A DNA stretch of 41,533 nucleotides from Candidatus Bathyarchaeota archaeon RBG_13_60_20 (GCA_001775965.1 MEZG01000068.1:1-41533); one strand, 5' to 3'; numbered from the stretch's first letter, positions 11,942-40,701 are shown. Notes: generated by a model from the letters alone, not told the origin. Program-made: numbers and translations.

Positions 11942-11976
11942 GCTCGGGCGATCAACTTTAATGGGCTCCGTATGAT

Positions 11977-12786: not shown

Positions 12787-12797
12787 GAGGCTGGGCT

Positions 12798-13595: not shown

Positions 13596-13613
13596 CTGAG
13601 CGCCTGGTCCGCC

Positions 13614-22159: not shown

Positions 22160-22163
22160 ATCG

Positions 22164-22571
22164 GTGTCTGAGATGAACGGGATCGAGGTTACACTGATTT
22201 CGGGGAGGACGGCGAGGCAGGGCATAGGCCTGGAAGAGGGCAAGACGTCCCAGGGCTACATCAAGAGCGTTAATGAGGTTAGCCTGTGCCCAGAGGACGC
22301 AGCGAGCCTGGGCCTCAGCGGGGACGAACCTGTGACGGTGGCCACGGAGCACGGCAGCGTGGTGGCGCACTGGAGGGTGGACAAAGGGCTGGCCCGGGGA
22401 ACCGCGTTCTTCCCCTACGGGCCGTGGGCCAACCAGGTGTACGCGTCGTCCACGGACGGCACCGGCATGCCCCAGTTCAAGGGGATAAGGGCCACCCTAT
22501 CCCCAGCCGCGGGCGGCAAGGTGCCGTCACTCCAGGAGATCGTGGAGTCCATGAGGAGAGCGGAGCATTGA
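22164..22571 (+). CDS. fwdD: Formylmethanofuran dehydrogenase subunit D (molybdopterin dinucleotide binding)
   Basis: LISGRTARQG, FFPYGPWAN and TDGTGMPQFKGI motifs. Confidence 0.93.
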   Translation: MSEMNGIEVTLISGRTARQGIGLEEGKTSQGYIKSVNEVSLCPEDAASLGLSGDEPVTVATEHGSVVAHWRVDKGLARGTAFFPYGPWANQVYASSTDGTGMPQFKGIRATLSPAAGGKVPSLQEIVESMRRAEH

Positions 22572-26477: not shown

Positions 26478-26478
26478 T

Positions 26479-27327
26479 ATGGATAAGCTGGTGCTAACGC
26501 CTAGGGGATTCAGCAGAGTACCCTTGGAGGCGGAGGTGATAACGCCAGACGCCTTCGCCGGCAAGTCCGTAAAGGAGATTAGGGCCCTGAGGGTCCACTA
26601 CGGCAACAGGGAGGTGGAGATGAGCGAGTATATCCATGTCCAGGGTAAGGTGGCCGACGCCCCGGTCGACCAGCTCATCGTCGTCGACGGGGACGCAAGG
26701 CACATCAAGTATATCGGCAGGGGGATGACCGCGGGTCGAATAGTGGTCCAGGGCGACGCCGGTATGCACACGGGCTCCCAGATGAGCGGCGGGGACATAA
26801 CTGTGGCGGGAGACGCAGGCGACTGGACCGGCGCCGAGATGAGGGGCGGCCTCCTCAGGGTGCTGGGCGACGCCGGGAACCTCCTAGGCGCCGCGTACAG
26901 GGGCAGCAGCGAGGGCATGACCGGCGGATGCATAATTGTCAACGGCAGCGCCGGTTCCGAGGTCGGCAGCTTCATGAGGAGAGGCATGATGGTGGTTGAG
27001 GGCGCCACTGGTCCCTTCACAGGCGTACATATGAACGGCGGCGAGATATTCGTCTTCGGCCCCCTGGGCAGGCGCGCCGGGGCCCAGGCCAAGGGCAACG
27101 GCGGCTTCATAGCGGCCCTCGGCGGCGCCCGGGAGGTGTTACCCACCTACGTCTACGAGGCCACCTACGCCCCCGGCTTCATGACGCTCTACATGAGGCA
27201 GCTGGCAGAGAACCTGGGCGTCAAACACGCCGCCAGGTACATCGGGGAGCCCCTCAGGAGGTACAGGGGCGACATGGCCATCGGCGGTAGCGCCGAGATA
27301 CTGGTCGCCGAGAAGGGGGCCCCTTGA
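26479..27327 (+). CDS. fwdC: Formylmethanofuran dehydrogenase subunit C (beta-helix)
   Basis: PLEAEVITPD, repeated GxxMxGG motifs and LGAAYRGSSEGMTGG. Confidence 0.95.
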   Translation: MDKLVLTPRGFSRVPLEAEVITPDAFAGKSVKEIRALRVHYGNREVEMSEYIHVQGKVADAPVDQLIVVDGDARHIKYIGRGMTAGRIVVQGDAGMHTGSQMSGGDITVAGDAGDWTGAEMRGGLLRVLGDAGNLLGAAYRGSSEGMTGGCIIVNGSAGSEVGSFMRRGMMVVEGATGPFTGVHMNGGEIFVFGPLGRRAGAQAKGNGGFIAALGGAREVLPTYVYEATYAPGFMTLYMRQLAENLGVKHAARYIGEPLRRYRGDMAIGGSAEILVAEKGAP

Positions 27328-28196
27328 GGGTAGGCATCATCGCCTCCGACCGCAGGGAGTGGCACGTGGGCCTGCTCTTAAGGGAGCTCAGGGCGAGGGG
27401 AGCCGAGGCTTACCTCCTCCCTGTCACCAGCTTCCGCGCATCCGTAGGCCGCGAGCCGAGGCTCACGGTGAAGGGCTACGGCGTGGACGACTACGACGCG
27501 GTCATCGTGCGCCGAGTACCAGGCGGCTCCGCCGAGCAGGTGTTCTACAGGATGGACGCCCTCCACAGGCTGGAGGACACGGGGGTCCTGGTGGTGAACC
27601 CTGCCCTGAGCATCGAGAGGGCCGTGGACAAGTACTACACCTCGGCGCTGCTTGAGGACGCCGGGATCAGGACGCCCCGCACCGTGGTCACCGAGAGCTT
27701 CGCAGAGGCCATGGTGGCCTACGAGGAGCTGGGAGGCGACGTGGTGGTTAAGCCCCTCTTCGGCAGCCTCGGCATGGGGATAACCAGGGTCTCCGACCCC
27801 GACCTTGCCCACAGGGTGTTCAGGGCCCTGGAGATGACCAGAAGCGTCTACTACGTCCAGGAGTTCATCAGGCACCCCGGCGTCGACCACAGGGTATTCG
27901 TCATCGGGGGCTCTATCGCGGCGTCCATGCGCCGCGTGGCCAGGGGCTGGAAGACCAACATCTCGGGTGGCGGCAGAGCCGAGCCCTATACGCCCAGCGA
28001 AGAGGTCGCCGAGGCGAGCCTCAGGGCCACCGAGAAGCTGGGCCTCATCTACTCAGGCGTCGACATCATAGTCTCGGAGGAGGGGGAGGCGTACGTCGTT
28101 GAGCTCAACAGCACTCCGGGATGGGAGGGCCTTCAATCTGTTACGGAAGTGGACATCGCGGTGCGCCTCGTCGACCACGTGCTGTCACTGATGTGA
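27324..28196 (+). CDS. RimK-family ATP-grasp glutamate ligase (MptN / Orf5-like)
   Basis: GGSAEQVFYRMDALH, ERAVDKY, VVKPLFGSLGMG, YVQEFI, WKTNISGGG and ELNSTPGW motifs. Confidence 0.9.
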   Translation: MRVGIIASDRREWHVGLLLRELRARGAEAYLLPVTSFRASVGREPRLTVKGYGVDDYDAVIVRRVPGGSAEQVFYRMDALHRLEDTGVLVVNPALSIERAVDKYYTSALLEDAGIRTPRTVVTESFAEAMVAYEELGGDVVVKPLFGSLGMGITRVSDPDLAHRVFRALEMTRSVYYVQEFIRHPGVDHRVFVIGGSIAASMRRVARGWKTNISGGGRAEPYTPSEEVAEASLRATEKLGLIYSGVDIIVSEEGEAYVVELNSTPGWEGLQSVTEVDIAVRLVDHVLSLM

Positions 28197-28202
28197 GGGA
28201 CC

Positions 28203-29219
28203 GTGTTGAAGCCGAAGGACAGGGACTTCGTGGAGACCGTCGAGGGGCACCTGTTCTGCGTGGTGGGGTACCTGCACCCCCCGGAAGGCTATACGGCGTA
28301 CCTCAAGTACGTGCCGGCCCCGGTGGGGAAGTGGGGCCGAGGCGAGGCCAGGTACACCAGGACCCTTCCCTTCTACCACGTCTCCCAGGTGGAGAACACG
28401 TACAGTTACCTCAGGGAGAACTACCCCAAGTACCTGATCGACTGTCCCGTACGCGGCTTCACGGTCTCCTATGTGCCCAGGCCCAGCGTCAGGAGGTACT
28501 ACAGGCCCCGGAAGGTACTCAGGGAGATCATGGCTAGGGGCGCAGTGGACCCCCTGGAGGAGAAGCTGCTGAGGCTGGCGGGGCTTCTCACGGATGAGTC
28601 GGGCGTAAGGGGCCTAGGCGTGACGGGCTCCATATTGACTGGCATCCACAACCCCGACTTCTCCGACATTGACCTCACAGTCTACGGTGCCGGCCCGTCT
28701 AGGAGGCTCAAGGACGCCGTGCTGAGGTTGAGGAACGAAGGCGACAGGGTGCAGCCTCCAACGCGTCAAGAGATAGAGTCGTGGTGCCGCGAGAGGATCA
28801 GCAAGTTCCCCCTGACTGTGGATGAGCTGAGACGGGTCGCCGAGACGAGGTGGAACTACGGGTTCTACACGGGCACCTACTTCTCGGTGCACCCCACCAG
28901 GGCGGACAGGGAGATCACCGAGGCGTACGGGGATAACACGTACCGCAGGGTCGGAGAGGTCAGCGGCTCGGCGACGGTGGCCGATGCCTCCGAGTCCATG
29001 TTCCTGCCCGCGTTCTACCGTGTCGAGGACGCCGCGCTGCCCGGCGGCGTCGAGGCGGAGCGCCTGGTCTCCTACGAGGGGCTCTACGGCGGCGTATTCG
29101 CTGAGGGGGATCGGGTAGAGTTCAGAGGCGCCTTGGAAAAGGTGGAGGGAAAGAACCCGGGCCACCAGGTTGTGGTCGGGGGGGCCGGCTCCCCAGCCGG
29201 CTACATAAGGTGGGCCTAG
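28203..29219 (+). CDS. Predicted nucleotidyltransferase (Pol-beta superfamily, COG1665-like), paralog 2
   Basis: LGVTGSILTG...SDIDLTVYG motif; N-terminal DRDFVETVEGHLFCVVGYLHPP...AYLKY; C-terminal GDRVEFRGALEKV. Confidence 0.82.
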   Translation: MLKPKDRDFVETVEGHLFCVVGYLHPPEGYTAYLKYVPAPVGKWGRGEARYTRTLPFYHVSQVENTYSYLRENYPKYLIDCPVRGFTVSYVPRPSVRRYYRPRKVLREIMARGAVDPLEEKLLRLAGLLTDESGVRGLGVTGSILTGIHNPDFSDIDLTVYGAGPSRRLKDAVLRLRNEGDRVQPPTRQEIESWCRERISKFPLTVDELRRVAETRWNYGFYTGTYFSVHPTRADREITEAYGDNTYRRVGEVSGSATVADASESMFLPAFYRVEDAALPGGVEAERLVSYEGLYGGVFAEGDRVEFRGALEKVEGKNPGHQVVVGGAGSPAGYIRWA

Positions 29220-30631
29220 CCCTCGGGGTACGGCTTCCACTTGTCGGACACGTAGGACGCGATCCCGGACGAGTCCATGGGGCCCACGGCGACGTTCCAC
29301 CCGGACAGCTCCTGTATCTCGCCGCTGAGCCTGGCCGCCCTGCCGGGGATGATGAGGCTGCGGTGCTTCACCTTCTCAGACACCTTGCTGTTGGTTATGG
29401 CCTCCGCCACGGTCTCGGCGGTCATCTTCCTGCCCGCCACGGCGCTCTCGACGCTCATGCCCTCGCTGTCCACCACCAGCAGGTAGCTGTCCACCTTGGC
29501 GCCCTCGATGTCAGAGGCCACCGTGTAGTAGGTGAGGGCGAAGTTGGTGGTGAGGAGCACGGGCGAATCCTCGGTCGGGTTCCCTATGGGCATGAGGCCG
29601 GCCTCCACCGAGACGGGCTTCCTGGGGTCCGTGTAGAGGTTGCTCCGCAGGAACACCTGGGGGAGCAGGGCCCACCCGCTGATGCCGTGGACCACTATTA
29701 TGTCGGTGAATCTGGTGATGAGGGCCGCGGCCAGCTGGGCCTCGCTCCACTCGTGGAGCACCGGGTCCTCGGCCGGGGCCGTCCAGGCCGCTATTGGTGC
29801 GCCCATGAGGGGGTAGCCCAGTCCCTCCTCCTCGCCGTTGATGGCGTCCCACCTCAGGATGGTGAAGGTATCCAGGTTGGCTCCCATGTACTCGGTGGGC
29901 GCGGTCCCTGGGTCCAGGACGATGTCCTTTATGCCGTACGCCTCCAGCGTGAGGGCCAGGCTCTTTAGGCCGTCCAGGTCCATGGGCGAGGAGGCGACCA
30001 GCGGGCAGCTGTGCTTCAGGGCCAGCTCGGCCATCTTCTGCCAGTTGTCCCTCGTCGCGGCGTAGATGAGGGGCCTCCTGTCCGCCGCGGCGTCCAGCCC
30101 TGCCTCCATGACAGCCGGGTCCAGGGCGCAGAGCATCAGAGGCTTGCGGGTAAGCTCGGCGGCCTTCTTAACGGCCTCCCCGAACTTGGAGGGGTCGCCG
30201 CTGGTGGACCTCACGGCCAGCATGTCCAGCGAGAGCTTCATGCCTATGTAGTCGTAGCTGAAGTCGTTGAGGACGTGGACCCTGGTCTCGAACTCCTCGT
30301 CGCCCATCTCGTCGCCCACGTCCACTGCCATGGCCGGCTGATGAAAGTAGGTGAACTCGTGCCTGTAGAGGACATACTCTCCGCCCAGGATCAACTTGTT
30401 GTCGCCCACTCCCACCTCCACGGCCTTGACCGCGGGCTTCAGCAGGGCCCACAGCTTGTTGTAGCTCTCGGCCTTCCCCGGGTCCAGGAGGGGCTTGCAC
30501 TCCTCCAAGGTTGCCTCCCTGTTCACCAGCTTGGCTGCGAAGGCCATGCAGTTGGCCTCGCCGCAGTCCTTACAGTTGGTACCGGGCAGGCCCCTGTAGA
30601 TCTCTATGGGGCTAAGTTCTTTCGCGGGCAT
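29216..30631 (-). CDS. cdhE: ACDS complex gamma subunit (corrinoid Fe-S protein large subunit)
   Basis: LPGTNCKDCGEANCMAFA...C, LYRHE, NLYTDPRKP, TTNFALTY and GPMDSS motifs. Confidence 0.97.
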   Translation of the reverse strand: MPAKELSPIEIYRGLPGTNCKDCGEANCMAFAAKLVNREATLEECKPLLDPGKAESYNKLWALLKPAVKAVEVGVGDNKLILGGEYVLYRHEFTYFHQPAMAVDVGDEMGDEEFETRVHVLNDFSYDYIGMKLSLDMLAVRSTSGDPSKFGEAVKKAAELTRKPLMLCALDPAVMEAGLDAAADRRPLIYAATRDNWQKMAELALKHSCPLVASSPMDLDGLKSLALTLEAYGIKDIVLDPGTAPTEYMGANLDTFTILRWDAINGEEEGLGYPLMGAPIAAWTAPAEDPVLHEWSEAQLAAALITRFTDIIVVHGISGWALLPQVFLRSNLYTDPRKPVSVEAGLMPIGNPTEDSPVLLTTNFALTYYTVASDIEGAKVDSYLLVVDSEGMSVESAVAGRKMTAETVAEAITNSKVSEKVKHRSLIIPGRAARLSGEIQELSGWNVAVGPMDSSGIASYVSDKWKPYPEG

Positions 30632-30635
30632 AGCT

Positions 30636-31964
30636 TCAGCCTCCCACCTTCAGAGTGACCCAGTCGGCCGGGTCCGCTGGCCTCTCCCCCTTCATGAGGC
30701 CGTCGATCATGGTCTTGAGGGCGTTGACCGCGGCTGGGTGCATCATCATGAAGTAGTCCACACCAGCTAGGAGCATCGTCTGGCCTGTGATGGTCTCCCA
30801 TATGGGGCCGCGCAACTCCCTGGGGCTGAACTCGGGGCCCATCTTCATCCAGGACTCGCGGGCCGCCCATGCGTTGGTGGTGCCCGAGGAAAGGGGGTGG
30901 TTGAGCTCGGGGTCGCCCTTGAGGGCCGCCAGGCGGCACCTCTCCATAACCGTGAACGCGTAGTCCAGGCCGTAGCCCAGGGCCGCGGTGGTGGTGTCCA
31001 TGATTATCTGCTCCTTTGGGACGAAGTCGTAGAGCTTCCTGTTGAGCTCCCGGGCCTTGTTAACGTCCATGCTGGTGAAGGCGATGACGCAGTTGTCGTG
31101 GTCCTTGATGAGTCTGGCCGACTTCTCTATGTCCATGTCCAGGGTCACCGAGTTGATGAGAAGCCTTTCCCCCTCGATCTTCTCGCTGATGGCCGTGAAG
31201 ACCTCCAAGTCCTTCTTGGGGTCCCCGCAGCCGCCTATACTGATGGGCACGTCCACGGCCTGGAGAACCTCCTCCACCTTCTTGACCGCCGCGCTGGGCG
31301 GCGCGTTATCGATAAGGGGGTCTATGGTGAGCAGGTGCAGGTTAACCATCTCGGCGCCGTACTTTTCGACGCACACCCTGGCCCACTCGCCGGTGTCGTG
31401 GAGCACCTCCTCGAAGTGCATCTTCACGGCCTTGCTGAGCCTGACCTCGGGCCAGTCGAAGACATCCAGCGCGATTATGGGCTTGTGGGGCGGCGGCGAC
31501 TGGAAGTTGTAGAAGGCTGGCGCCCTCTCCCCGCCAATGACGTAGCTGGCGGACCGTGTGCCCCCCTCGGCCTTGGTGGCCCCCAGCTTCACCTCGACGA
31601 CGCTGCCGACGTAGTCTCCCTTGGGGATTGTGACCTTGGCCGGGATGAGAGCCGTAGGCCTGGCCGGGGCGGCCGGCTGAGGGGCCAGCGCCTGCGGCGC
31701 CATGGCCTGCAAGGGCGCGTAGCCCGCCGGGAAGCCGCCGCCCAGTAGCTGAGCCATCCTGCTGGCCGAGTCCCTGATGAGGGCGAACTCGAAGGCCATC
31801 CTGCTGAGGAGGGCCGGGTTGGCTCCGCCCTGGCTCTGCCCAATGTCCAGCTCGACCTCGCCCAGATCCATCTCAACGTCCTGGAGCTCCACCTCCTGGA
31901 ACCGTGCTAGGCGCTCCAGTAGGTCGCGGCTGAGGGGCAGGGTGAGCTTGTCTGGCTTGGTCAT
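30636..31964 (-). CDS. cdhD: ACDS complex delta subunit (corrinoid Fe-S protein small subunit)
   Basis: ATG 31964; EVKLGATKAEGGTR, IGGCGDPKKD, TTAALGYGLDYA, RLAALKGD, NAWAARE and MMMHP motifs. Confidence 0.96.
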   Translation of the reverse strand: MTKPDKLTLPLSRDLLERLARFQEVELQDVEMDLGEVELDIGQSQGGANPALLSRMAFEFALIRDSASRMAQLLGGGFPAGYAPLQAMAPQALAPQPAAPARPTALIPAKVTIPKGDYVGSVVEVKLGATKAEGGTRSASYVIGGERAPAFYNFQSPPPHKPIIALDVFDWPEVRLSKAVKMHFEEVLHDTGEWARVCVEKYGAEMVNLHLLTIDPLIDNAPPSAAVKKVEEVLQAVDVPISIGGCGDPKKDLEVFTAISEKIEGERLLINSVTLDMDIEKSARLIKDHDNCVIAFTSMDVNKARELNRKLYDFVPKEQIIMDTTTAALGYGLDYAFTVMERCRLAALKGDPELNHPLSSGTTNAWAARESWMKMGPEFSPRELRGPIWETITGQTMLLAGVDYFMMMHPAAVNALKTMIDGLMKGERPADPADWVTLKVGG

Positions 31965-31969
31965 GCGGG

Positions 31970-33412
31970 TCACTCCTTCTCTGCCCTGATGATTACCCTC
32001 TCGGCCCTGATCTTGGCGTTCTTCAGTATGATCTTCAGGGTGACTCCCTGGGGGAGCCCCTGCAGCATGGCCGCGGGCAGGGCCCCGGCGGGCAGCTCCA
32101 TGGTTGGCACCGTGAAGCCCGCCATGGGGAACTGCTGAGCCTGCTGCTGCGCCGGCTGGGGCGCCGCTGCCTCCTTGGGCTTCTCCTCCTCGGCCTTCCA
32201 CCGGCCCACTATGGGGTGGCTCTTCTCCCGGAGCCACTTCTTGAGGCCGTCGAGGTCCTGGACACTCTCCTCGGTGGCTATCTTGGGCACGATCTCGGGG
32301 GGCATGTACTCCTTGATCCTGTCCATGATGTCCTTGGGCATCCAGACGACGCGGTCCCAGCCTCCGTCGGCCTGCAGGAACTTGGGGCTCCTCATGTACT
32401 CTATGCTGAGGCCGTGGAACCCGTCCACCTGCCTGCCGCCGGCCGTCAGGTCGCTGATGGTGACGAAGTCGAGGCCGTTCACCGTCTTGCTCTTGTAGTT
32501 GCGGTGGACGACGCCGTAGCCGTCCACCTCGGGTATGTAGAAGGCGCAGCCCTCGAAGCATCCGCAGCTCGTGTGAGGGTATCCAAAGGCCGTGTAGAGC
32601 TGGACTCGCTCTATCTCACCCAGACTCTTGTCTCTGATGACCTTGTTCACCTGCTCGTACTCGCCCTTCACGGGGTCGATGAGGGCACCCTTGGGTATCT
32701 CGAAAACGGGTCCCTTGGGGTCCACCTTGGCGGTGGCCCTGCCGTCGAACCAGCTGATGGCGCCGCAGTTGGCGTACCTCTGGGGCGTGATGACGCATAG
32801 GTGGGTTGGGGCGAAGCTCTGGCAGAGGCTGCACCCGTAGAATACGTCCACCTCGTCGTCGCTCATGCCTCGAGCCCTGGCGTCCCTGGCCTCGTAGAGG
32901 CCCATGGCCCTGGGGTACCACTCCTCGACCTTGGCCGGTTCGGTGATGAAGGTGATCTGCATCTTCTCGATGAAGGGCATCTCGCTCTTGTAGAGCCTGA
33001 GAAGCACGGTGCCCAAGTGGTTGAAGCTGTTGAAGCCCTTCTGGTAGCTCTTCTTGCTGAGCCTCATCTGTATGTCGTAGCGCTGGTTCAGGTGCATGAA
33101 GCCCTCGATGAAGTTGACATACTCGTGTAGACGCCGCTCTATTACGCCCTCCAGGTCCTTCTCTATCTCGGCTCCGGCCACATCGATGATCATGCCGAAG
33201 GGCGTGTTGGTGCCCTCGGGGAGCTCCTTTATGTCCTTGCCCACGATGGTCATCTTGCCGTCCTCGACCTCGTCCATCGGCTTGGCCTGGACCAGCTCGA
33301 ACTTGTAGGTCTCCCTGGGGCCACCCAGCTCCAACTGCATGTCGCGGCCCCTGATCCTTTCACCCTCGTAGATGATGCCCACATCCACGGGGATGTCCTC
33401 AAACATCGACAC
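31970..33412 (-). CDS. cdhC: ACDS complex beta subunit (acetyl-CoA synthase)
   Basis: YEGERIR, FYGCSLCQSFAPTH, CGAISW, HTSCGCFE and FLQADGGWDRVVWMP motifs; A-cluster Cys intact. Confidence 0.97.
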   Translation of the reverse strand: MSMFEDIPVDVGIIYEGERIRGRDMQLELGGPRETYKFELVQAKPMDEVEDGKMTIVGKDIKELPEGTNTPFGMIIDVAGAEIEKDLEGVIERRLHEYVNFIEGFMHLNQRYDIQMRLSKKSYQKGFNSFNHLGTVLLRLYKSEMPFIEKMQITFITEPAKVEEWYPRAMGLYEARDARARGMSDDEVDVFYGCSLCQSFAPTHLCVITPQRYANCGAISWFDGRATAKVDPKGPVFEIPKGALIDPVKGEYEQVNKVIRDKSLGEIERVQLYTAFGYPHTSCGCFEGCAFYIPEVDGYGVVHRNYKSKTVNGLDFVTISDLTAGGRQVDGFHGLSIEYMRSPKFLQADGGWDRVVWMPKDIMDRIKEYMPPEIVPKIATEESVQDLDGLKKWLREKSHPIVGRWKAEEEKPKEAAAPQPAQQQAQQFPMAGFTVPTMELPAGALPAAMLQGLPQGVTLKIILKNAKIRAERVIIRAEKE

Positions 33413-33413
33413 T

Positions 33414-33959
33414 CTACTTTCCCTCCTCTAAGCGTGATACTATCTTATCTACTGTGTCCTTCCAGTCGGGCTCCGGCATCCAGCCGAGGCTCCACTCGGC
33501 GTTGGGCTGGTAGCTCCTCTCCAGGCTTATGGTCCTGAGGCTGCTGAAGTTCTTGAGCCCGGACTCCACGAGCCACTCCATGTAGTAGGGGAACCCTGCG
33601 AAGACCACGGCGTCGTATGAGCCCAGGCCGTCGAAGCCCCTCCAGTCGGGGTCGCTCAGGTGCTTGCCCAGCACGAAGATGCCCATGCTGTACGCCTTAG
33701 TGACGCCCCTGCGCCTGAACTCTCCCACCAGGTGGCCGGTTGCCACTACCGTGATCTTCTCGTTCCTCATGACCCTGATTGCGGTGTCAACCAGGTCCCC
33801 GTCTTTGGTCTTCACAGCCGTCGATTCAGACCCTATGACGAGTAGGGGCCTCTTAGCCCTGGATATGAGTTTGGCGGCCACATCGGGGTTGGGGACGACG
33901 TTGGCCTTCTTGGGGCCGGCTATCTCGGCCGTCTGCCCCGTGTTCATCTTTGCGGCCAC
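33414..33959 (-). CDS. cdhB: ACDS complex epsilon subunit
   Basis: ISRAKRPLLVIG, DPDWRGFDGLGSYD, LKNFS and YQPNAEWS motifs; lies between cdhA and cdhC. Confidence 0.94.
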   Translation of the reverse strand: MAAKMNTGQTAEIAGPKKANVVPNPDVAAKLISRAKRPLLVIGSESTAVKTKDGDLVDTAIRVMRNEKITVVATGHLVGEFRRRGVTKAYSMGIFVLGKHLSDPDWRGFDGLGSYDAVVFAGFPYYMEWLVESGLKNFSSLRTISLERSYQPNAEWSLGWMPEPDWKDTVDKIVSRLEEGK

Positions 33960-36304
33960 TATTCCCGCCTCCTCACCATCCTGTCGAGGAGGGTCGGATC
34001 CGGTGAGGCTATCCTGTCCTCAACCCAGCCCTTGGCCTCAAGTATCTTCATTATCTCGTCCTTCATGGTGAAGGGCACGTCCTGTCCGCGGCGGACGAAG
34101 AGGTGCAGGTCGTCGGGCATGGCCCCGTAGTGCTTCTTGTGCAGGTCTATGTAGTGGCTGAGCTTGACTGCGCGGCCCTTGCTGGTGTCGTTGGGCCTCA
34201 TGGCCAGCTTGGCGATCATGACCATGGCCTCCTCCAGGGTCTCGGCGGCGTAGAACAGATGCTCAGGGGCGGGGCCCACGTAGACCTCCTGGCCGTCCCT
34301 GGCGTTGAACACCTTCCAGTCCTCCTCCTTGCCCTGGTCTCCCAGAAGCATCCTGCGGTACTTGGAGCCGTGGGGACCAACCACAACAGGTATCCCCAGC
34401 CTCCAGCAGCCCGCCGCGATGGAGGCCGCTTTCTGGCTCATGGCGCCCCACGCGACGCCCACGGCGCCTACGCGGTTGTATATGTAGTCGGCTATCTCCT
34501 CGTAGTTGGCCCTAAGGGGCCGCTTGGCGAAGATGTTGGCGATCTTGATGGCGGCCCCCGTGATGTGGCCGTTGGAGACGCAGCTGCCAACGTTAACCAG
34601 GCCTCCGGCGTCGAAGTTGCCCGGGTACTTCTCGTAGAGGTTCTGGCCCTCCTCGTCCCTGGTCATGGCTATGTTCATGGCGGAGCAACCCGAGGTCACG
34701 ACGATGAACCGCCTCTTGAGGAACTCCTCGGCTATGGCGGCCACGTCGCCTCCCCCAGCCGGGTAGTTGGCGCAGCCCACCAGGGCCACGACCCCCGGAA
34801 TCTCTCCGAAGACTATTGGGCTGCCCACCTCCCTGATCTCCACGTCCTGGATGGCGCCCCTGCCCACCCTTATGGGGTACTTCTCGTTGACCAGCTGGTC
34901 CTTGGACGCCTGGGTTATCATGGTCAGTATGGGCAGGTCGGCGGGGCAGGCGCTCTCGCAGCGGCCGCACCCGACGCACAAGTCGTTGAGCTCTGCTAGG
35001 GGCCCGTAGTCGCCCTCCTTGGCGGCCGTCATGGCGTCCATGATGGGCAGGGTGTTGGGGCAGGCCCTTATGCACTCCATGCAGGTCCGACACTTGGACG
35101 CGATCTCCTTGAGGTCGCCCAGGTCCACCAGCTTCTTTTCGCCCCGCCGCTTTCTGACGGCCATGGCCGTCTTCACGGCGATCTCGCCCACCTTCCTGGG
35201 CTCCGTGACTAGGGCGCCCGGCGACCTACCCGAGATGAGGTCGTTCACCACGGCCTCGGCAGGGTCGTGGGTCCTGTCAGGTAGCCCCAGGCAGCTCTTC
35301 TCGCTGGTGGCGAGGACGGGGACGCCGATTAGCTTCGCCTGGTCCATGACGTCCGTGCGGATGCACTGCTCGTCCACGACGATGAGGTCGGGTATCCCGG
35401 ACTTGATGAACTTGAGCTGCCACGAGATGGGGCCCACGATCTTGGATCGCTTGTTGTACCTGCTCATGTCGTGGGCGGTGCAGCAGAGTCCGCCCACCTC
35501 CACCTGGTCGAAGAGGTCGTGGTCCATGAGGTAGTCGATGATGTCCACGCTGGGCAACACGTTATGGCCAATGCACATGATGACCGGCTTATCGGGGTTG
35601 ATCGTGCCGTAGCCCAGTTCAGCCAGCGGCGCCTCTGGGTCGCCTTTTGGTAGGCCGAGCGTCGCGATCTGCATGAGGTCGGCCACCTCCAGGGCGACGT
35701 GGTCCAGCATCCCCGCGTGGAAGGCCTTGGACTCGAAGTCGATGTTGTCACCCTCCTGGCCAGTGTGGGCCGCGGCCACCAACTGCACTATCTGGGTCTC
35801 CACGTAGTCCAGCGCCTCCTCCAGGTCCCCGATGGTCTGGGGCTTTATGCCGCAGACGAGCCTGACGTGAGGCGCCTCGACATTGGTGTTCAGCGCAGCC
35901 ACCAGGGGCGTGTCCTTCCCGAACTCCTGTATGAGGTGGTTGAGCATGTGGCGGCCGTGAGCGGCGTGGGTCGCCGCGCCTATACAGCAGGCCAACAACA
36001 CGATCCTGGACTGCTGCGCGGGCATGCTGATGCCGCAGGCGCCCTTCTTGTCGCCCGTGAGGTCGCACTTGCCATAGGTGCACAGGCAGCACAGATCGCA
36101 GAAGGGCATGTAGAAGGGCTTGTACCTGTTTAGGAGCTTCCTGTCCCAGCTTCTCAGCGTGCTCACGGAGGGCATGGGTGTGGGCCCCATGGGTTCCTCC
36201 CACTCCTCGTCCATGATCCGGCCGATCTGGATCTCCAGGCCCTTGAAGGTGCCGAGGGTGGATGAGAGTTCATCGAACTTGAGCTTTACGTTCCTGTTCG
36301 CCAT
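33959..36304 (-). CDS. cdhA: ACDS complex alpha subunit (archaeal Ni-CO dehydrogenase)
   Basis: PMGPTPMP, CDLCCLCTYGKC, IGHNV, GLCCT, DEQC, two extra CxxCxxCxxxCP motifs, VGC, SGC and GSCVSN. Confidence 0.98.
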   Translation of the reverse strand: MANRNVKLKFDELSSTLGTFKGLEIQIGRIMDEEWEEPMGPTPMPSVSTLRSWDRKLLNRYKPFYMPFCDLCCLCTYGKCDLTGDKKGACGISMPAQQSRIVLLACCIGAATHAAHGRHMLNHLIQEFGKDTPLVAALNTNVEAPHVRLVCGIKPQTIGDLEEALDYVETQIVQLVAAAHTGQEGDNIDFESKAFHAGMLDHVALEVADLMQIATLGLPKGDPEAPLAELGYGTINPDKPVIMCIGHNVLPSVDIIDYLMDHDLFDQVEVGGLCCTAHDMSRYNKRSKIVGPISWQLKFIKSGIPDLIVVDEQCIRTDVMDQAKLIGVPVLATSEKSCLGLPDRTHDPAEAVVNDLISGRSPGALVTEPRKVGEIAVKTAMAVRKRRGEKKLVDLGDLKEIASKCRTCMECIRACPNTLPIMDAMTAAKEGDYGPLAELNDLCVGCGRCESACPADLPILTMITQASKDQLVNEKYPIRVGRGAIQDVEIREVGSPIVFGEIPGVVALVGCANYPAGGGDVAAIAEEFLKRRFIVVTSGCSAMNIAMTRDEEGQNLYEKYPGNFDAGGLVNVGSCVSNGHITGAAIKIANIFAKRPLRANYEEIADYIYNRVGAVGVAWGAMSQKAASIAAGCWRLGIPVVVGPHGSKYRRMLLGDQGKEEDWKVFNARDGQEVYVGPAPEHLFYAAETLEEAMVMIAKLAMRPNDTSKGRAVKLSHYIDLHKKHYGAMPDDLHLFVRRGQDVPFTMKDEIMKILEAKGWVEDRIASPDPTLLDRMVRRRE

Positions 36305-36457
36305 ATGGGTTTTCTCTCCTTGAATCTTATATCATGTTGCATCGTAGTATATTATTTATAGCATTTACAGAAAGTAGCAAGTTTAGCTAGATTTACTAGC
36401 ACTTGATGCAAAATTCTAAAAACCACGCAGCATAATATGTTAAAAGGAGGATTAAAC
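36305..36457. promoter_or_regulatory. AT-rich divergent promoter region cdhA / metF
   Basis: TATA-like TATATTATTTATA (36348-36360); AGGAGG (36445-36450) before TTG 36458; inverted pair TTGCATC (36337-36343) / GATGCAA (36405-36411). Confidence 0.55.
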
Positions 36458-37381
36458 TTGACAAATCGACCAGCATACAGCCAGCTAGTCAAGGACCTTA
36501 GGTCGGGGAAGTTCGTCCTGACCGGCGAGCTGGAGCCCGAGAAGGTAACCAGCCTGGACGAGATAATCATCAGCGCAAAGGCCATGAAGCCCTACGTCGT
36601 GGCGGCCAATGTGACCGACAACCCCCTGGCCTTCGCCTACATGAATAGCCTAGTCCCCTCCTGGGTGATACAGAAGGAGGTGGGCCTGGAGGCCGTCTAC
36701 CAGATGACCATCAGGGACAGGAACAGGCTTGCCATAGTCTCCGACGTCCTAGCGGCGTCCTACCTGGGGATAAAGAACATACTGGCCATATCCGGGGACC
36801 ACACGGTCCTCGGCGACAACCGGGGCGCCCTGAGCGTGTACGACCTCGACAGCGCCCAGTTCGTCTACCTGCTCCACAAGATGATAGACGAGGGCGTGGA
36901 CCTGGCCGGGAACGAGATCCACGGCAAGGTGGGGATCAACGTGGGAATAGCGGCCAACCCAAACGCCGACCCGCTGATGCCGGAGGTGCTGAAGATCGGG
37001 CGCAAGACCAAGATCGGCGCCGACTTCATCCAGACCCAGACTATGTTCGACATCGACAAGACCAAGACGTTCCTCAAGGAGGTGGAGAAGTACAACTGCC
37101 CGGTGCTGGTGGGGGTGTTCCCTCTGAAGAGCTTCGGCATAGCCGACTTCTTCGACAAGAACATTCCCGGCGTGAAGGTGCCGCCGGAGCTGCTGGCTTC
37201 CATGGCTAAGGCCAAGGAGGAGCCAGACAAGGAGAGGAGGAGCGCCCTCTACGACGAGGTGAACTTGGAGTTCTTCGTGCCCTTCATCAAGGAGATCAGG
37301 AAGACCACCAAGGCCTCGGGCATCCACATCATGGCTGTGCTCTACGAGCGCATCTTTGGGCCGCTGCTGGAGAACTTCTGA
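36458..37381 (+). CDS. metF: Methylenetetrahydrofolate reductase family, MetF
   Basis: GELEP, NVTDNP, QMTIRDRNRLAI, ISGDH, VYDLDS and GADFIQTQ motifs; TTG start after AGGAGG (alternative ATG 36437). Confidence 0.92.
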   Translation: MTNRPAYSQLVKDLRSGKFVLTGELEPEKVTSLDEIIISAKAMKPYVVAANVTDNPLAFAYMNSLVPSWVIQKEVGLEAVYQMTIRDRNRLAIVSDVLAASYLGIKNILAISGDHTVLGDNRGALSVYDLDSAQFVYLLHKMIDEGVDLAGNEIHGKVGINVGIAANPNADPLMPEVLKIGRKTKIGADFIQTQTMFDIDKTKTFLKEVEKYNCPVLVGVFPLKSFGIADFFDKNIPGVKVPPELLASMAKAKEEPDKERRSALYDEVNLEFFVPFIKEIRKTTKASGIHIMAVLYERIFGPLLENF

Positions 37382-37392
37382 GGTGAGATGAG

Positions 37393-38028
37393 ATGATAAT
37401 AACGAAGGCGAAACCCGAGGAAGAACTGAACGAGATGCTGAAGCCCTACGAGAAGCTGTTCGTGGTGGGCTGCGGAACATGCTCCACGAGCTGCATGACG
37501 GGCGGCGAGGAGCAGGTGGCCGAGATGGTGAAGAAGCTGGGCGACCGGGCCATAGGCTCTGCCGTCGTGGAGGACCCCTGCGACCTGAGGATAGCCCGAA
37601 AGGAGCTGAAGGAGTTCAAGGCCAAGGTCCAGGGGGCTGACGCGGTGCTCGTCATGAGCTGCGGCGCCGGTGTCCAGACCGTCGGCGACTACTCCAAGAA
37701 GATAGTGCTGCCAGCCCTGGACACCCTGTTCATAGGCCAGACGGAGCGCCTGGGGAAGTTCCACGACGTCTGCAAGGCGTGCGGCGAGTGCATCCTGGAC
37801 GAGACGGGGGGCGTCTGCCCTGTCACCCGCTGCGCCAAGGGGCTGCTCAACGGGCCCTGCGGCGGCCAGGTGAAGGGCAAGTGCGAGGTGGGCAAATACG
37901 AGAACGACTGCGCCTGGGTGCTCATATACGACAGGCTCAAGGAGCAGGGCCGACCCGAGCTCTTCGAGTTGTTCAGGCCGCCCAGGGATAACAGCAAGAA
38001 GGTGCTCACCCAGCATCACGTCTTCTAG
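37393..38028 (+). CDS. metV: MetV, Fe-S subunit of methylene-tetrahydropterin reductase (MTHFR C-terminal domain family)
   Basis: GCGTCSTSCMTGG, SCGAGVQ and CKACGEC...CPVTRCAKGLLNGPCGG...CEV...CAW motifs; directly follows metF. Confidence 0.92.
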   Translation: MIITKAKPEEELNEMLKPYEKLFVVGCGTCSTSCMTGGEEQVAEMVKKLGDRAIGSAVVEDPCDLRIARKELKEFKAKVQGADAVLVMSCGAGVQTVGDYSKKIVLPALDTLFIGQTERLGKFHDVCKACGECILDETGGVCPVTRCAKGLLNGPCGGQVKGKCEVGKYENDCAWVLIYDRLKEQGRPELFELFRPPRDNSKKVLTQHHVF

Positions 38029-38104: not shown

Positions 38105-39847
38105 TTGAAGTGCAAGGGTTTGAGGGACGACACTGTGTCAGTCGTCATTGGGGGCGAGGCGGGGCAGGGCATCAGCAGGAGCGGGGAGCTCTTGGGGAAG
38201 GCGCTGATGCGCTGTGGGTTCCACTGTTACGGGACCATGGACTACCCTAGCCTCATACGGGGTGGCCATAACTTCTACCAGCTGAGGGCGTCCTCCAGGC
38301 CCGTGTACAGCCAGACGCCCTACGCCGATGTCCTCATAGCCCTCAACAGGGAGTCGGTGGGGCTCCATCTAGGAAGCATGAACGCGGGCGGGGGCGTCAT
38401 CCACGACGAGCGCGACGCGCTGGAGGAGGGGCTGGGCAGGGACCGGGGAATCAACCTCTACCCGGTGCCCCTCACGGACATCGTGAAGGAGCTGGGGGGC
38501 CCGGATATCATGAGGAACACGGTGGCCCTGGGCGCAGCCTCGGCCCTCATCGGCCTCGACGCGGGCACGCTCAAGCAGGTGGTGGCCGAGACCTTCGAGG
38601 GGCGGGAGAAGATCATCAAGATGAACGAGGACGCCATCCAGAGGGGATACACGTACGTGGCCGGGCAAGACTACGGGTTCGGGTGCTGCTTGGAGTCAGG
38701 GGAGCGCCCCCGAGGGCAGTGGCTCACCGGGAACGACGCGATTGCCCTGGGCGCTATGGCCGCCGGATGCAAGTTCTACTCTGCTTACCCCATGACCCCC
38801 GCGAGCCCCCTCCTTCACTACTTCGCGAGCCACGACAAGGCGGGGGGCACGGTGGCTATCCAGACAGAGTCCGAGATAGCGGCCGCCATGATGGCCATAG
38901 GCGCCTCCTACGCTGGGATACGCAGCATGACGGGGACCAGTGGTGGCGGCTTCAGCCTCATGACGGAGAGTCTGAGCCTGGCCGCCATGTCCGAGACGCC
39001 CCTGGTGGTCATGCTGGGGCAGAGACCGGGGCCCAGCACAGGCCTCGCCACCTACTCGGCCCAGGGGGACCTCCTCTTCGCCGTGTACGGAGCCCACGGA
39101 GAGTTCCAGAGGATCGTCGTGGCGCCTGGGGACGTGGATGAGTGCTTCTACCTGGCAGCCGAGGCGTTCAACCTAGCCGAGCGGTTCCAGATACCTGTCA
39201 TCCTGCTGACGGACAAGACTCTAGTGGAGAGTAACCAGACCACTGACGCCTTCGACCTGTCCAGGGTCAGCATAGACAGGGGTAAGCTGGTTGAGTCTTG
39301 GGAGGGGCCCGGAGAGTACCTGAGGTACAGGGACGATGAGGACGGCGTTTCCCCCCGGGCTTTCCCGGGCGCCGAGGGCATACTGGTCCCCGCGAACAGC
39401 AACGAGCATCTGGAGAACGGGTTAAGCACCTCCAGCTCCGAGGCCGTGGCTAAGATGGTGGACAAGCGCTTCAGGAAGGCACAGCATATAAGGGCCGCCG
39501 TGGAGGGGCTCCAGCCAATCAGGGTCTACGGGGATAAGAGACCCAGGGTCACCCTGGTGGGGTGGGGCGGGACAAAGGGGCCCGCCCTGGAGGCCCTCGG
39601 GATGCTCAGGGACGACGGCGTGAAGGCGAGGTTCGTGCAGGTGGTGTTCATGGAGCCGTTCCCCGGCGGCCTGGAGAAGTACCTAAAGGGCACCTGCGTC
39701 CTCTTCGAGGACAACAGGTCGGCTCAGCTGGGGACCCTCATCAGGCTCAACACCGGGTATGCCTTCAAGCACGTGGGGCTCCGCTACGACGGCCGCCCAT
39801 TCAACCCGGGTGAGATCAGGGACAGGGTGCTGGAGGTGCTCGGATGA
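38105..39847 (+). CDS. 2-oxoacid:ferredoxin oxidoreductase alpha subunit (gamma-alpha fusion, KorA-type)
   Basis: GGEAGQG, YPSLIRGGHN, AYPMTPAS, ESEIAA, TSGGGFSLM and QRPGPSTG motifs. Confidence 0.95.
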   Translation: MKCKGLRDDTVSVVIGGEAGQGISRSGELLGKALMRCGFHCYGTMDYPSLIRGGHNFYQLRASSRPVYSQTPYADVLIALNRESVGLHLGSMNAGGGVIHDERDALEEGLGRDRGINLYPVPLTDIVKELGGPDIMRNTVALGAASALIGLDAGTLKQVVAETFEGREKIIKMNEDAIQRGYTYVAGQDYGFGCCLESGERPRGQWLTGNDAIALGAMAAGCKFYSAYPMTPASPLLHYFASHDKAGGTVAIQTESEIAAAMMAIGASYAGIRSMTGTSGGGFSLMTESLSLAAMSETPLVVMLGQRPGPSTGLATYSAQGDLLFAVYGAHGEFQRIVVAPGDVDECFYLAAEAFNLAERFQIPVILLTDKTLVESNQTTDAFDLSRVSIDRGKLVESWEGPGEYLRYRDDEDGVSPRAFPGAEGILVPANSNEHLENGLSTSSSEAVAKMVDKRFRKAQHIRAAVEGLQPIRVYGDKRPRVTLVGWGGTKGPALEALGMLRDDGVKARFVQVVFMEPFPGGLEKYLKGTCVLFEDNRSAQLGTLIRLNTGYAFKHVGLRYDGRPFNPGEIRDRVLEVLG

Positions 39848-40701
39848 GCCTCACCATGAAGGATCTGGACACGGGCGCCACCAACACCTGGTGCCCTGGA
39901 TGCGGCAATTTCGCTATCCTCATGACCGTGAAACAGGCCCTCATCCAGCTGGGCCTCAACCCCAGCCAGGTGGTGGCCGTCTCCGGGATCGGGTGCCACG
40001 GCAAGACCACGGACTACCTCAAGGTGAACACCTTCCACGTGATCCACGGCCGCGTGCTGCCCGCGGCCACGGCCATAAAGCTGGCCAACCACGGGCTCAC
40101 AGTGCTGGGCTTCGCAGGGGACGGCGACGCCTTCAACATAGGGATGGGCCACTTCCCCCACGCGGCCCGCCGCAACGTGAACATGGCTTACATAGTGCAC
40201 GACAACCTCATCTACGGGCTCACCACGGGCCAGGCCAGCCCCACCAGCAGGCAGGGCCTCGTCACCAAGACCACGCCCAGGGGCAGCGCGGAGCCCGGCG
40301 TCAACCCCCTCACCCAGAGCCTCACCGGGGGCGCCACCTTCGTGGCCCGCACCTTCGCGGGCGAGGCAAAGCACATGACCGAGGTGCTGAAGCGGGCAAT
40401 AACCCACAGGGGATTCGCCGTGGTGGACGTGCTCCAGCCCTGCGTCACCTTCAACAGGGTGAACACCTACGAGTTCTACAAGCAGCGCGTCCGCAAGCTG
40501 GAGGAGGAGGGCCACGACGAGGGCGACTTCGAGGCCGCGTACAGGCGGGCCCAGGAGTGGGGCGACGTCATACCCATCGGCGTCTTCTACGTGGAGGAGC
40601 GGCCCACCTATGAGGATGGCTTCCCCGCCCTAGCCGGGGGTCCCCTGGTCGGTCAGCCCCTCAGCAGGGACCTTTCCGGGCTCATGGCCGAGTTCAAGTA
40701 G
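39844..40701 (+). CDS. 2-oxoacid:ferredoxin oxidoreductase beta subunit (TPP-binding, KorB-type)
   Basis: WCPGCGNF, SGIGC, HGR, GDGD, YGLTTGQASPT and VLQPCVTFN motifs. Confidence 0.95.
   Translation: MSLTMKDLDTGATNTWCPGCGNFAILMTVKQALIQLGLNPSQVVAVSGIGCHGKTTDYLKVNTFHVIHGRVLPAATAIKLANHGLTVLGFAGDGDAFNIGMGHFPHAARRNVNMAYIVHDNLIYGLTTGQASPTSRQGLVTKTTPRGSAEPGVNPLTQSLTGGATFVARTFAGEAKHMTEVLKRAITHRGFAVVDVLQPCVTFNRVNTYEFYKQRVRKLEEEGHDEGDFEAAYRRAQEWGDVIPIGVFYVEERPTYEDGFPALAGGPLVGQPLSRDLSGLMAEFK

Follow-up and report, generated by a model that had tools for sequence, protein, structure and literature searches.

A MetF-MetV pair divergent from cdhABCDE in a Bathyarchaeota genome: a candidate F420-independent methylene-pterin reductase within an H4MPT gene cluster

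Archaeal Mer is the F420-dependent methylene-H4MPT reductase. For uncultured archaea without Mer, among them ANME-1, Syntrophoarchaeum and numerous lineages of Bathyarchaeia and Asgard archaea, the corresponding enzyme is a long-standing gap, and how electrons are balanced in archaeal acetogenesis and in the anaerobic oxidation of methane and alkanes depends on its identity. This question is raised by the stretch of DNA analysed here (the window), 41,533 nt of Candidatus Bathyarchaeota archaeon RBG_13_60_20 (GCA_001775965.1 MEZG01000068.1:1-41533). The source genome, labelled G000, is a MAG and is 64% complete, and therefore all gene absences in G000 are provisional. Genes were identified by Pfam and NCBIfam scans of the 41 window ORFs, with the following features.

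14450-16012: H4MPT-type DHPS-like protein (Pterin_bind match)
21212-28196, plus strand: H4MPT methyl-branch genes mch, fwdD, fwdB, fwdA, ftr, fwdC and mptN (profile matches)
22164-22571, plus strand: fwdD, within the preceding group (profile match)
29216-30631, minus strand: cdhE (PF03599 with PF04060)
about 30636-32000, minus strand: cdhD (PF03599 with TIGR00381), its start placed from a 455-aa match in a relative
31970-33412, minus strand: cdhC (PF03598 with PF19436)
33414-33959, minus strand: cdhB/epsilon (PF02552)
33959-36304, minus strand: cdhA, archaeal-type CODH/ACS alpha subunit (TIGR00314, 1183 bits, cut-off 781)
36305-36457, no strand: cdhA-metF intergenic region with two AT-rich TATA-like blocks
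36437/36458-37381, plus strand: metF, predicted MTHFR-family TIM-barrel catalytic subunit (PF02219, 95.8 bits, cut-off 24)
37393-38028, plus strand: metV, predicted iron-sulfur subunit, 211 aa (PF12225, 116.7 bits, cut-off 23)
38105-39847, plus strand: 2-oxoacid:ferredoxin oxidoreductase alpha (TIGR03710, 618 bits for the oxidoreductase pair; also PF12367 and PF02775)
39844-40701, plus strand: 2-oxoacid:ferredoxin oxidoreductase beta (same pair and matches)

A beta-RFAP synthase gene is also present, and the profile scans bore out the original prediction that the other C1-carrier genes of the window are all of the methanofuran/H4MPT type. The divergent arrangement of metF-metV and cdhABCDE, said to be about 150 bp apart, was likewise recovered, with a spacer of 132-153 bp depending on the metF start. 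No member of the Mer, Mtd, Fhs or FolD families was matched among the 41 ORFs (Pfam and NCBIfam), nor was hdr or mvhD (Pfam). The earlier statement that mer, mtd, fhs and folD are absent thus holds for the window but not for the genome, where fhs (766 bits), folD (153 bits) and an F420-dependent mtd are found on contig C86.

Counted from the cdhA ATG to the longer metF ORF, the spacer measures 132 bp (36305-36436), and on inspection it is AT-rich. From sequence comparison, the true start of metF is likely to be the TTG at 36458, just after AAGGAGGA, giving a protein of 307 aa: in the two closest relatives a GTG start stands at the corresponding position, and alignments with homologues extend over 97-98% of the longer ORF. 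With this start the spacer becomes 153 bp, in agreement with the distance first proposed. Homologues at 83-93% identity carry Bathyarchaeota names. The PF02219 match spans residues 21-305, and the NCBIfam equivalog models of NAD(P)H-type MetF scored far under their cut-offs, so that the window MetF is not of the classical subtype. Its AlphaFold model (pLDDT 86.3, pTM 0.87) has the beta8-alpha8 barrel of solved MTHFRs, and the top Foldseek PDB matches are all MTHFRs (TM 0.73-0.78, 17-20% identity, E about 1e-15). The ISGD and QTQ motifs align with LRGD and ITQ of the yeast and human enzymes, and all of 11 clade members compared have D121, Q199 and Q201; going by the literature on the E. coli enzyme, the acid of the GD motif and the glutamine of the TQ motif are presumably catalytic. 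The classical single-subunit MTHFRs (E. coli, Thermus and eukaryotic MetF) therefore have the fold and these aligned residues in common with the window MetF, but differ in sequence (best E-value 3e-8) and in that the window protein has a MetV partner.

The metV gene begins 11 bp after metF, and the two genes are neighbours in 75 of the 79 related loci. Twelve cysteines (C27, 30, 63, 90, 127, 130, 133, 142, 147, 156, 164 and 173) are invariant in 11 MetV sequences, and a search for solved structures among MetV relatives found none. By analogy with the acetogen MetFV cited in the excerpts of PMC9012536, MetF and MetV may form a physical complex. In the spacer, the blocks TATATTATTTATAGCATTTA and AAAATTCTAAAAAC are common to the two closest relatives, the second being partly kept in further relatives, and this region is a putative divergent promoter shared with cdhA. 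The oxidoreductase pair lies 77 bp 3' of metV in the same direction, an order that recurs in G107, G095 and L040, and we count these ferredoxin-reducing enzymes in favour of a ferredoxin-linked function of MetFV.

The arrangement of metF and cdhA is not due to chance. Among the 13 other same-order MetF genomes of the class sample, metF is divergent from cdhA in 10 (G107, G119, G098, G074, G077, G083, G095, G101, G068 and G006), the exceptions being G039, where the two are not divergent, and G086 and G018, where they are split over contigs. Elsewhere in the order, in sister lineages, the place 5' of cdhA that metFV holds here is taken by mer: it is directly 5' of cdhA and co-directional in G012, G044, G058, G034, G062 and G080, and 1.6 kb away in G029, as judged from coordinates with a Pfam check on G012 and G058. 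Inside one order, mer and metFV therefore alternate at this spot. Mer (TIGR03555) catalyses the reaction proposed for MetFV, but belongs to an unrelated luciferase-like family, uses F420H2 and has no iron-sulfur subunit. The basal member of the window's clade, G006 (94% complete), has the same cdhA-metFV arrangement together with Mtd and CofD, and no Mer, Fhs or FolD was found in it.

Has MetFV then taken the place of Mer in G000? Canonical Mer was not found in this genome: the best TIGR03555 match scores 95.5 bits (cut-off 348.7), compared with 423.7 bits for the control Mer of G098, and the three weak matches are F420-dependent LLM oxidoreductases of the TIGR03560 type. It might be that mer lies in the unassembled 36% of a genome that is 64% complete, and that MetFV is auxiliary, perhaps as a bypass coupled to ferredoxin or Hdr for other redox conditions. 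Such auxiliary use would have parallels, since canonical Mer and MetFV occur together in 7 of the 12 other same-genus genomes of the class sample, and Ca. Alkanophaga is described in the excerpts of PMC10322722 as encoding and transcribing both mer and metF. We nevertheless consider an unassembled mer improbable. The closest relative, G107, whose MetF is 92% identical and whose genome is 95% complete, has no Mer, and the two flanking genes of the mer locus of G098 and G039 are found inside contigs C10 and C18 of G000, where over 2 kb of other genes occupy the expected position of mer. For both these reasons mer is probably truly missing in G000.

The wider class does not support a simple replacement. 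The original prediction had asked for an anticorrelation of mer and metFV across Bathyarchaeia, and none appeared: of 121 genomes, 15 have both genes, 20 Mer only, 32 MetF only and 54 neither, an odds ratio of 1.27 (Fisher p 0.68) when the genomes are treated as independent and phylogeny is ignored. Six same-genus genomes carry canonical Mer together with an identical cdh-linked metFV arrangement, and Mer accompanies MetFV in 15 of the 47 MetF-bearing genomes. That the two genes co-occur, often as neighbours, indicates that MetFV is no simple Mer replacement, and it may do something that Mer does not. Neither gene is present in 29 of the 89 CdhA-bearing genomes, so cdh requires neither Mer nor MetF.

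We compared the 79 best loci in species-representative genomes. These come from Bathyarchaeia, Asgard groups, Syntrophoarchaeum, and MAGs of Methanosarcinales and Methanobacteriota, with bacterial labels on four. The order is metF-metV in 13 and metV-metF in 62 of the 75 loci showing both genes. In a MetF tree built without a bacterial outgroup or an ANME-1 sequence, the window MetF falls in a monophyletic clade of metF-metV order (18 rows, SH-aLRT 99) nested among archaeal sequences of metV-metF order. The label "bacterial-acetogen-type" given to this MetFV is thus apt for its two-subunit architecture and not for its nearest relatives, which in this search and tree are archaeal. Within about 6 kb of the 79 loci are H4MPT genes (mch, fwd, ftr, mtd, mtdB) in 16, cdh in 14, hdrA/mvh in 13 and mer in 11, while fhs or folD was found near none. 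Operons such as fwdD-B-A-ftr-mch-fwdC-mtdB-metV-metF in G013, fwdDBAC-mch-polyferredoxin::MvhD-metV-metF in G004 and mvhD-G-A-metV-metF in G027 illustrate this. In the window's own clade no hdr/mvh gene adjoins metFV, except for one match beside the G101 locus. Read from gene neighbourhoods, these contexts favour an H4MPT-type substrate for MetFV.

The folate genes of G000 suggest another possibility. A canonical mer with a full H4folate pathway elsewhere in the genome had been named as evidence against the original prediction; half of this was found, fhs, folD and mtd being present and mer not. With fhs and folD, G000 encodes a route from formate to methylene-H4F, for which MetFV, the only MTHFR-family gene in the assembly, is the sole recognisable reductase. 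Perhaps MetFV is an ordinary methylene-H4F reductase, and a Fhs-FolD-MetFV folate branch runs beside the H4MPT branch, feeding methionine and methyl-group biosynthesis or, via an unrecognised methyltransferase, ACS. We regard this as a serious though somewhat unlikely alternative. It is consistent with fhs-folD in G000 and across the sampled genomes of its family, all 26 of which have Fhs, with the six Mer-bearing congeners, which fit two enzymes for two carriers, and with the bacterial-type Wood-Ljungdahl enzymes reported for Bathy-3, -8 and -17 in the excerpts of PMC7886697 and PMC8407382. It also agrees with G104 and G110, which lack MetFV and each carry a classical MTHFR of roughly 290 aa, in G110 within an MTHFR-MetE-MetE operon, suggesting that a single folate-type need might be served by one type or the other. 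However, G127 has both MTHFR types, so the two are not strictly alternatives. In addition, metFV is linked to cdh and not to fhs or folD, and 27 of the 47 MetF-bearing genomes (of the 121 sampled) lack both Fhs and FolD; 19 of the 47 have CdhA and none of Mer, Fhs and FolD.

The enzymes expected to make folate or to use methyl-H4F also speak against an ordinary H4F reductase. In G000 we found no pterin-binding protein of the AcsE, MetH or FolP type and no MetE, and the MTHFR-MetE cassette is missing from the syntenic site on contig C17. Exactly one Pterin_bind protein is present in 15 of 16 genus genomes, in 12 of these 15 in a frame of 521-547 aa like the H4MPT-type DHPS-like protein of the window, and in G124 and G128 in shorter frames of 286-290 aa. 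Apart from G126, with a differing match (270-aa frame, 84 bits), AcsE, MetH and FolP were not found in the genus sample, and the genus seems to be without any folate-type pterin-binding enzyme.

Two further readings take both sets of genes into account. In one, MetFV takes methylene-H4F as well as methylene-H4MPT, and two C1 branches that run in parallel, from formate via Fhs and FolD and from CO2 via Fwd, Ftr, Mch and Mtd, would both end in it. To our knowledge dual carrier specificity is rare among such enzymes, and methyl-H4F would still have no known consumer in G000. We find this reading very improbable, even though both upstream branches are encoded with one methylene reductase found and the MtdA of methylotrophs, as cited in the excerpts of PMC9012536, offers a precedent. 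In the other, which we think doubtful, the lineage makes a single pterin carrier of H4MPT type, used by Fhs, FolD and MetFV as well as by Ftr, Mch, Mtd and CdhDE, so that the formate and CO2 routes would meet at the methylene-pterin. MetFV would then be a ferredoxin- or Hdr-coupled reductase that replaces F420-dependent Mer or, in congeners, stands beside it. If true, this would explain why FolP, AcsE and MetH were not found in the genus, the wiring of metFV to cdh, and the coexistence of Mer and MetFV.

The interpretation that we prefer, with moderate confidence and from sequence-based evidence, is that MetFV is a two-subunit F420-independent methylene-pterin reductase that supplies CODH/ACS, acting most likely on methylene-H4MPT or the lineage's own H4MPT-type pterin. 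MetF would be the flavin-containing TIM-barrel catalytic subunit, into which MetV would bring electrons via iron-sulfur clusters at its conserved cysteines. The donor might be reduced ferredoxin, directly or via an HdrA::MvhD-type module encoded elsewhere in G000, where HdrA2-like::MvhD genes are found on C1, C10 and C25, NfnB-like genes are present, and MvhAG is on C73. Ferredoxin is reportedly the hypothesised donor for clostridial MetVF. The methyl group formed would pass to the archaeal CODH/ACS, whose genes lie on the other side of the putative shared promoter; running in reverse, MetFV would oxidise the methyl group. The characterised MTHFR-family enzymes known to us all act on H4F. In keeping with the original statement, we found in the literature no biochemical proof of methylene-H4MPT reduction by MetFV, nor any published assay of an MTHFR-family enzyme on H4MPT.

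The comparison sharpens the Mer/MetFV question without settling it, in that MetFV is no mere stand-in for a lost Mer and is tied by gene context to those for cdh, H4MPT and Hdr/Mvh functions. Because G000 also carries fhs and folD, operons of the G006 and G013 type are cleaner cases.

The architecture of an MTHFR subunit with a cysteine-rich MetV (PF12225) is common to the acetogen MetFV, both of the Moorella thermoacetica type (the MetFV-HdrABC-MvhD complex cited in the excerpts of PMC9012536) and of the clostridial MetVF type, and a Wood-Ljungdahl methyl-branch role next to CODH/ACS genes may be alike. The likeness is one of architecture. Unlike the Moorella type, the window has no clustered hdrABC-mvhD (hdr/mvh genes are near metFV in 13 of the 79 relatives), and the partner ACS is archaeal CdhABCDE, with no AcsE found. 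The MetF-MetV of Methanosarcinaceae and ANME-2 is likewise a pair in an H4MPT-using archaeon, but is described in the excerpts of PMC9012536 as H4F-specific, of a different MetF clade and part of a folP-folD-glyA-purN anabolic cluster, whereas the window type has no fhs or folD neighbours among the 79 loci and no folP was found.

The closest known system is the "ANME-1-type" MetF/MetV clade, which according to the excerpts of PMC9012536 comprises ANME-1, Ca. Syntrophoarchaeum, Bathyarchaeota, Verstraetearchaeota and Asgard MAGs. The Syntrophoarchaeum MetF is 56% identical to that of the window and is, with Asgard and Bathyarchaeia sequences, among its nearest relatives. A switch from Mer to MetF on H4MPT is already in print for the archaeal clade (excerpts of PMC9012536), and an H4MPT-adapted MetF with Hdr/MvhD coupling is discussed for ANME-1, Syntrophoarchaeum, Bathyarchaeota and Asgard MAGs (excerpts of PMC9012536, PMC5244752 and PMC10322722). 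The idea is therefore not new, and the window MetFV belongs to a group already proposed as a Mer stand-in, with the two-gene unit and the published hypothesis in common. It differs in that G000 has fhs and folD, which ANME-1 lacks according to the same excerpts of PMC9012536, and in that its genes are in the order metF-metV, not metV-metF, and stand divergent beside cdhABCDE.

Annotation of the window with Pfam and NCBIfam scans (41 ORFs) placed metF and metV, which encode the MTHFR-family (PF02219) and iron-sulfur (PF12225) proteins of MetFV, divergently from the cdh operon.

Features annotated in the window
36304 down to 29216, minus strand: cdhA-cdhB-cdhC-cdhD-cdhE
36437-37381 (ORF limits), plus strand: metF
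37393-38028, plus strand: metV
38105-40701: 2-oxoacid:ferredoxin oxidoreductase alpha/beta pair, 3' of metV
Upstream C1 genes: mch, fwdD, fwdB, fwdA, ftr, fwdC, mptN
H4MPT-biosynthesis genes: beta-RFAP synthase, DHPS-like protein, DUF447, CitG-like protein
Further genes: RACo, two CooC-like ATPases, AfpA

The spacer between cdhA and metF is 132 bp by ORF limits and 153 bp when counted from a TTG at 36458, which bears out the divergent arrangement with a spacer of about 150 bp that had been read from the DNA. This arrangement is real and conserved. Judging from the alignment, the TTG, preceded by AAGGAGGA, is the more likely true start of metF, because it lines up with the GTG start in the two closest relatives and homologues span 97-98% of the longer ORF.

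The genes fwdD-fwdB-fwdA-ftr-fwdC-mptN (22164-28196) all run in one direction as a single cluster in which ftr is placed between fwdA and fwdC, an order that presumably resembles the formyltransferase/hydrolase (Fhc) layout of methylotrophs. Another co-directional block (10109-14453), 15 kb away from the cdh operon, comprises RACo (corrinoid activase), two CooC/AcsF-like ATPases and a CofE-like protein whose match to the 'F420 ligase' family is weak (65.8 bits). Two paralogues of 334-338 aa, at 17656-18660 (minus strand) and 28203-29219 (plus strand), show a faint match only to the nucleotidyltransferase family PF01909, and adjoin the H4MPT-biosynthesis genes and cdhE/mptN. The cdhE-side copy is kept in relatives, with three tandem copies by mptN in the sampled genome G006 (locus L020, 10007-12983), and these proteins possibly have a role in cofactor biosynthesis.

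No match to Mer, Mtd, Fhs or FolD was found among the 41 window ORFs with Pfam and NCBIfam. The source genome (G000), of which the window is contig C68, is a 1.22-Mb MAG split over 86 contigs, with 64% completeness and 0.5% contamination, and the original prediction that mtd, fhs and folD are missing is true of the window only, since all three are on its contig C86. There fhs (766 bits) and folD are adjacent and co-directional, and an F420-dependent mtd lies about 2 kb from them (330 bits; 323.7 with NF002162 against a cut-off of 297). Contamination was ruled out as the origin of fhs-folD by the matching GC content of C86 and by the finding of Fhs in each of the 26 genomes sampled from the window's family, with or without MetFV. 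MetF is the sole MTHFR-family gene of G000, and its one Pterin_bind protein is the H4MPT-type DHPS-like protein of the window. The hdr and mvh genes proposed for a genome search are present, as HdrA2-like::MvhD genes on contigs C1, C10 and C25, NfnB-like genes, and mvhAG on C73. McrA, CofH and CofD were not found in a search of this 64% complete genome. CofD was not found either in three genomes of the same genus that are 90-96% complete (G107, G098 and G119), and is present in G101 and G006. All four genomes in which it was not found carry F420-dependent Mtd and F420-type LLM oxidoreductases, and G098 and G119 also canonical Mer; the genus either scavenges F420 or has an unrecognised biosynthesis route.

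Canonical mer was not found in G000, where the top match, at 95.5 bits, stayed below the cut-off of 348.7. The three weak matches to the Mer model are TIGR03560-type F420 LLM oxidoreductases, and a divergent Mer was ruled out because the same paralogues occur beside true Mer in congeners. Canonical Mer is found in 7 of the 12 other same-genus genomes of the class sample, which makes the incompleteness of G000 a genuine concern. However, no Mer was found in G107, the closest relative, whose genome is 95% complete and whose MetF is 92% identical, and the neighbours of mer in G098 and G039 fall within contigs C10 (1403-1849) and C18 (4529-4807) of G000, where over 2 kb of other genes occupy the expected place of mer. 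These two results point to a true absence of Mer, and we regard it as unlikely, independently of which carrier is used, that mer is merely unassembled.

The distribution of both enzymes was compared in 121 Bathyarchaeia genomes (120 at 85% completeness or more, and G000). Canonical Mer is present in 35 and window-type MetF in 47, a count that leaves out G089, G104, G110 and G116, whose sole matches are 25-30% identical, and that includes six MetF that are fragments or have stops (G018, G021, G022, G023, G096 and G115). CdhA was found in 89, FolD in 51 and Fhs in 32. Both Mer and MetF occur in 15 genomes, Mer only in 20, MetF only in 32 and neither in 54; within the 89 CdhA-bearing genomes the numbers are 14, 18, 28 and 29. 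The anticorrelation of mer and metFV that had been proposed gives no sign of itself here (odds ratio 1.27, Fisher p 0.68, with related genomes treated as independent). Window-type MetF is present in all seven Mer-bearing genomes of the genus, and in six of them (G074, G077, G083, G095, G098 and G119) metFV is divergent from cdhA as in the window. A precedent for co-occurrence is Ca. Alkanophaga, in which mer and metF are both encoded and transcribed, according to passages of PMC10322722. Neither Fhs nor FolD was found in 27 of the 47 MetF-bearing genomes, and 19 of the 47 carry CdhA without Mer, Fhs or FolD; one genome, G006 (94% complete), has the window's arrangement with Mtd and CofD, and Mer, Fhs and FolD were not found in it.

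The best 120 homologues of the window's MetF are 83-93% identical, and the named ones are Bathyarchaeota. Together with fibrillarin, these names assign the source organism to Bathyarchaeia. A profile scan with one genome per species gave 79 related loci from Bathyarchaeia, Asgard archaea (Thor-, Prometh-, Jord-, Atabey-, Borr-, Baldr- and Hodarchaeota), Ca. Syntrophoarchaeum (56% identity), and MAGs of Methanosarcinales and Methanobacteriota. Four of the 79 have bacterial labels (L039, Krumholzibacteriaceae; L048, Patescibacteria; L053, Pirellulales; L102, Nanopelagicaceae); their MetF is of the archaeal clade type, L039 also has the cdhA-metFV context, and they are likely mislabelled or mis-binned MAGs. 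In a quick maximum-likelihood tree of 90 rows (usable MetF from 95 of 96 loci, six duplicates dropped), unrooted, drawn from the midpoint and not including MetF of bacterial acetogens, Methanosarcina or ANME-1, the window's MetF belongs to a monophyletic 18-row clade with the order metF-metV (SH-aLRT 99). Nested within metV-metF-order sequences, this clade has G006 as its basal member. Our placement agrees with the part of PMC9012536 that presents a tree of an 'ANME-1-type' MetF clade, and the archaeal assignment is based on this published tree together with the scan and our unrooted tree. The term 'bacterial-acetogen-type' in the original prediction therefore fits the architecture of MetFV, but not its ancestry.

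The predicted model of MetF is an MTHFR-like barrel with 17-20% identity to solved MTHFRs, and a PDB sequence search found no relative of MetV with a solved structure. MetV has 12 invariant cysteines, and by analogy MetF and MetV would be in physical contact. Residues 121-134 of the MetF model (window about 36797-36838), a loop directly after the conserved GD motif, DHTVLGDNRGALSV, are the one internal part of the model where pLDDT falls below 50. The window's clade and the metV-metF-order clade differ in the sequence of this loop, which, going by the model, is a candidate for contact with the substrate or a partner. Frames of 540-550 aa around the MetF match (G033:C230, G038:C11, G043:C75, G063:C85 and G094:C55) may be MetV-MetF fusion proteins.

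Within about 6 kb of metFV in the 79 loci, H4MPT genes occur in at least 16, cdh in at least 14, hdrA/mvh in at least 13, mer in at least 11, FrhB-like genes in at least 6 and NfnB-like genes in at least 5; many contigs are short, so these counts are minima. With the same short contigs, fhs or folD was seen near metFV in none of the 79. Pfam annotation of ten class loci gave a view of whole operons.

Operons with metVF in other Bathyarchaeia genomes (Pfam)
G013 (L028 309-9048): fwdD-B-A-ftr-mch-fwdC-mtdB-metV-metF
G004 (L022 466-8705): fwdDBAC-mch-polyferredoxin::MvhD-metV-metF
G079: fwdDBAC-mch-(pyridine-nucleotide disulfide oxidoreductase)-metV-metF
G027 (L025 9218-13458): mvhD-G-A-metV-metF, mer convergent
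G010 (L027 7516-11341): metV-metF-mvhG-A
G102 and G025: HdrA::MvhD divergent from metVF, with FrhB-like genes

Sister lineages within the order (f3, f4 and f1-g3) have mer immediately 5' of cdhA and in the same direction (G012:C9, G044:C27, G058:C39, G034:C42, G062:C103 and G080:C217; in G029 at 1.6 kb), whereas in the window's lineage metFV takes this position divergently. The site beside cdhA is thus held by either mer or metFV within the order.

On the folate side, exactly one Pterin_bind protein was found in 15 of the 16 genomes of the genus sample, in 12 of these 15 with a frame of 521-547 aa like the H4MPT-type DHPS-like protein. The frames are shorter in G124 and G128, and the match in G126 differs (270-aa frame, 84 bits). 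FolP, AcsE and MetH were not seen in this sample, G126 left aside. Eight of the 16 have MetFV as their only MTHFR-family protein, five have none, and two (G104 and G110) have a classical enzyme of about 290 aa only; strict mutual exclusion within the genus was ruled out by G127, which has both types. In G110 an MTHFR-MetE-MetE operon holds the classical gene, and the gene 5' of cdhA encodes a GFO/IDH/MocA oxidoreductase. On contig C84 of G110 (L115 2561-5510), MTHFR and the two MetE-like (Meth_synt_1/2) genes are flanked by deoxyhypusine synthase on one side and a CBS-HTH regulator on the other. The cassette is absent at the syntenic site on C17 of G000, which instead holds a PLP-dependent enzyme and two ORFs with no assigned function, and MetE was not found in G000. 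The fhs-folD pair of G000 keeps a plain folate role alive, and action of MetFV on H4F only is possible, if somewhat doubtful.

Overall, the evidence favours a role for MetFV in an H4MPT/ACS context with electron entry through iron-sulfur clusters. Electrons would enter via the clusters of MetV, for which the 12 cysteines could serve, with ferredoxin or HdrA::MvhD as donor. We consider the chances evenly balanced that the carrier is of the H4MPT type, and the use of both carriers seems quite improbable. The question touched by the window's metFV is important, although G000 is not the cleanest case for answering it. In line with the original statement, full-text literature searches found no biochemical test of an archaeal MetFV on H4MPT.

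None of the consulted passages of the cited papers mentions divergent metFV-cdhA or mer/metFV alternation at that site. Gene tables in the supplements of PMC10321748 and PMC7886697 may already give MetF and Mer for each order of Bathyarchaeia. In the parts of the published work that bear on this subject, some Bathyarchaeia have bacterial-type WL enzymes (PMC7886697, PMC8407382), and an 'unknown complex' stands in place of Mer in some families (PMC8407382). A Mer/MetF switch, a possible adaptation of MetF to H4MPT and a possible coupling to Hdr/MvhD are already in print, in passages of PMC9012536, PMC5244752 and PMC10322722.
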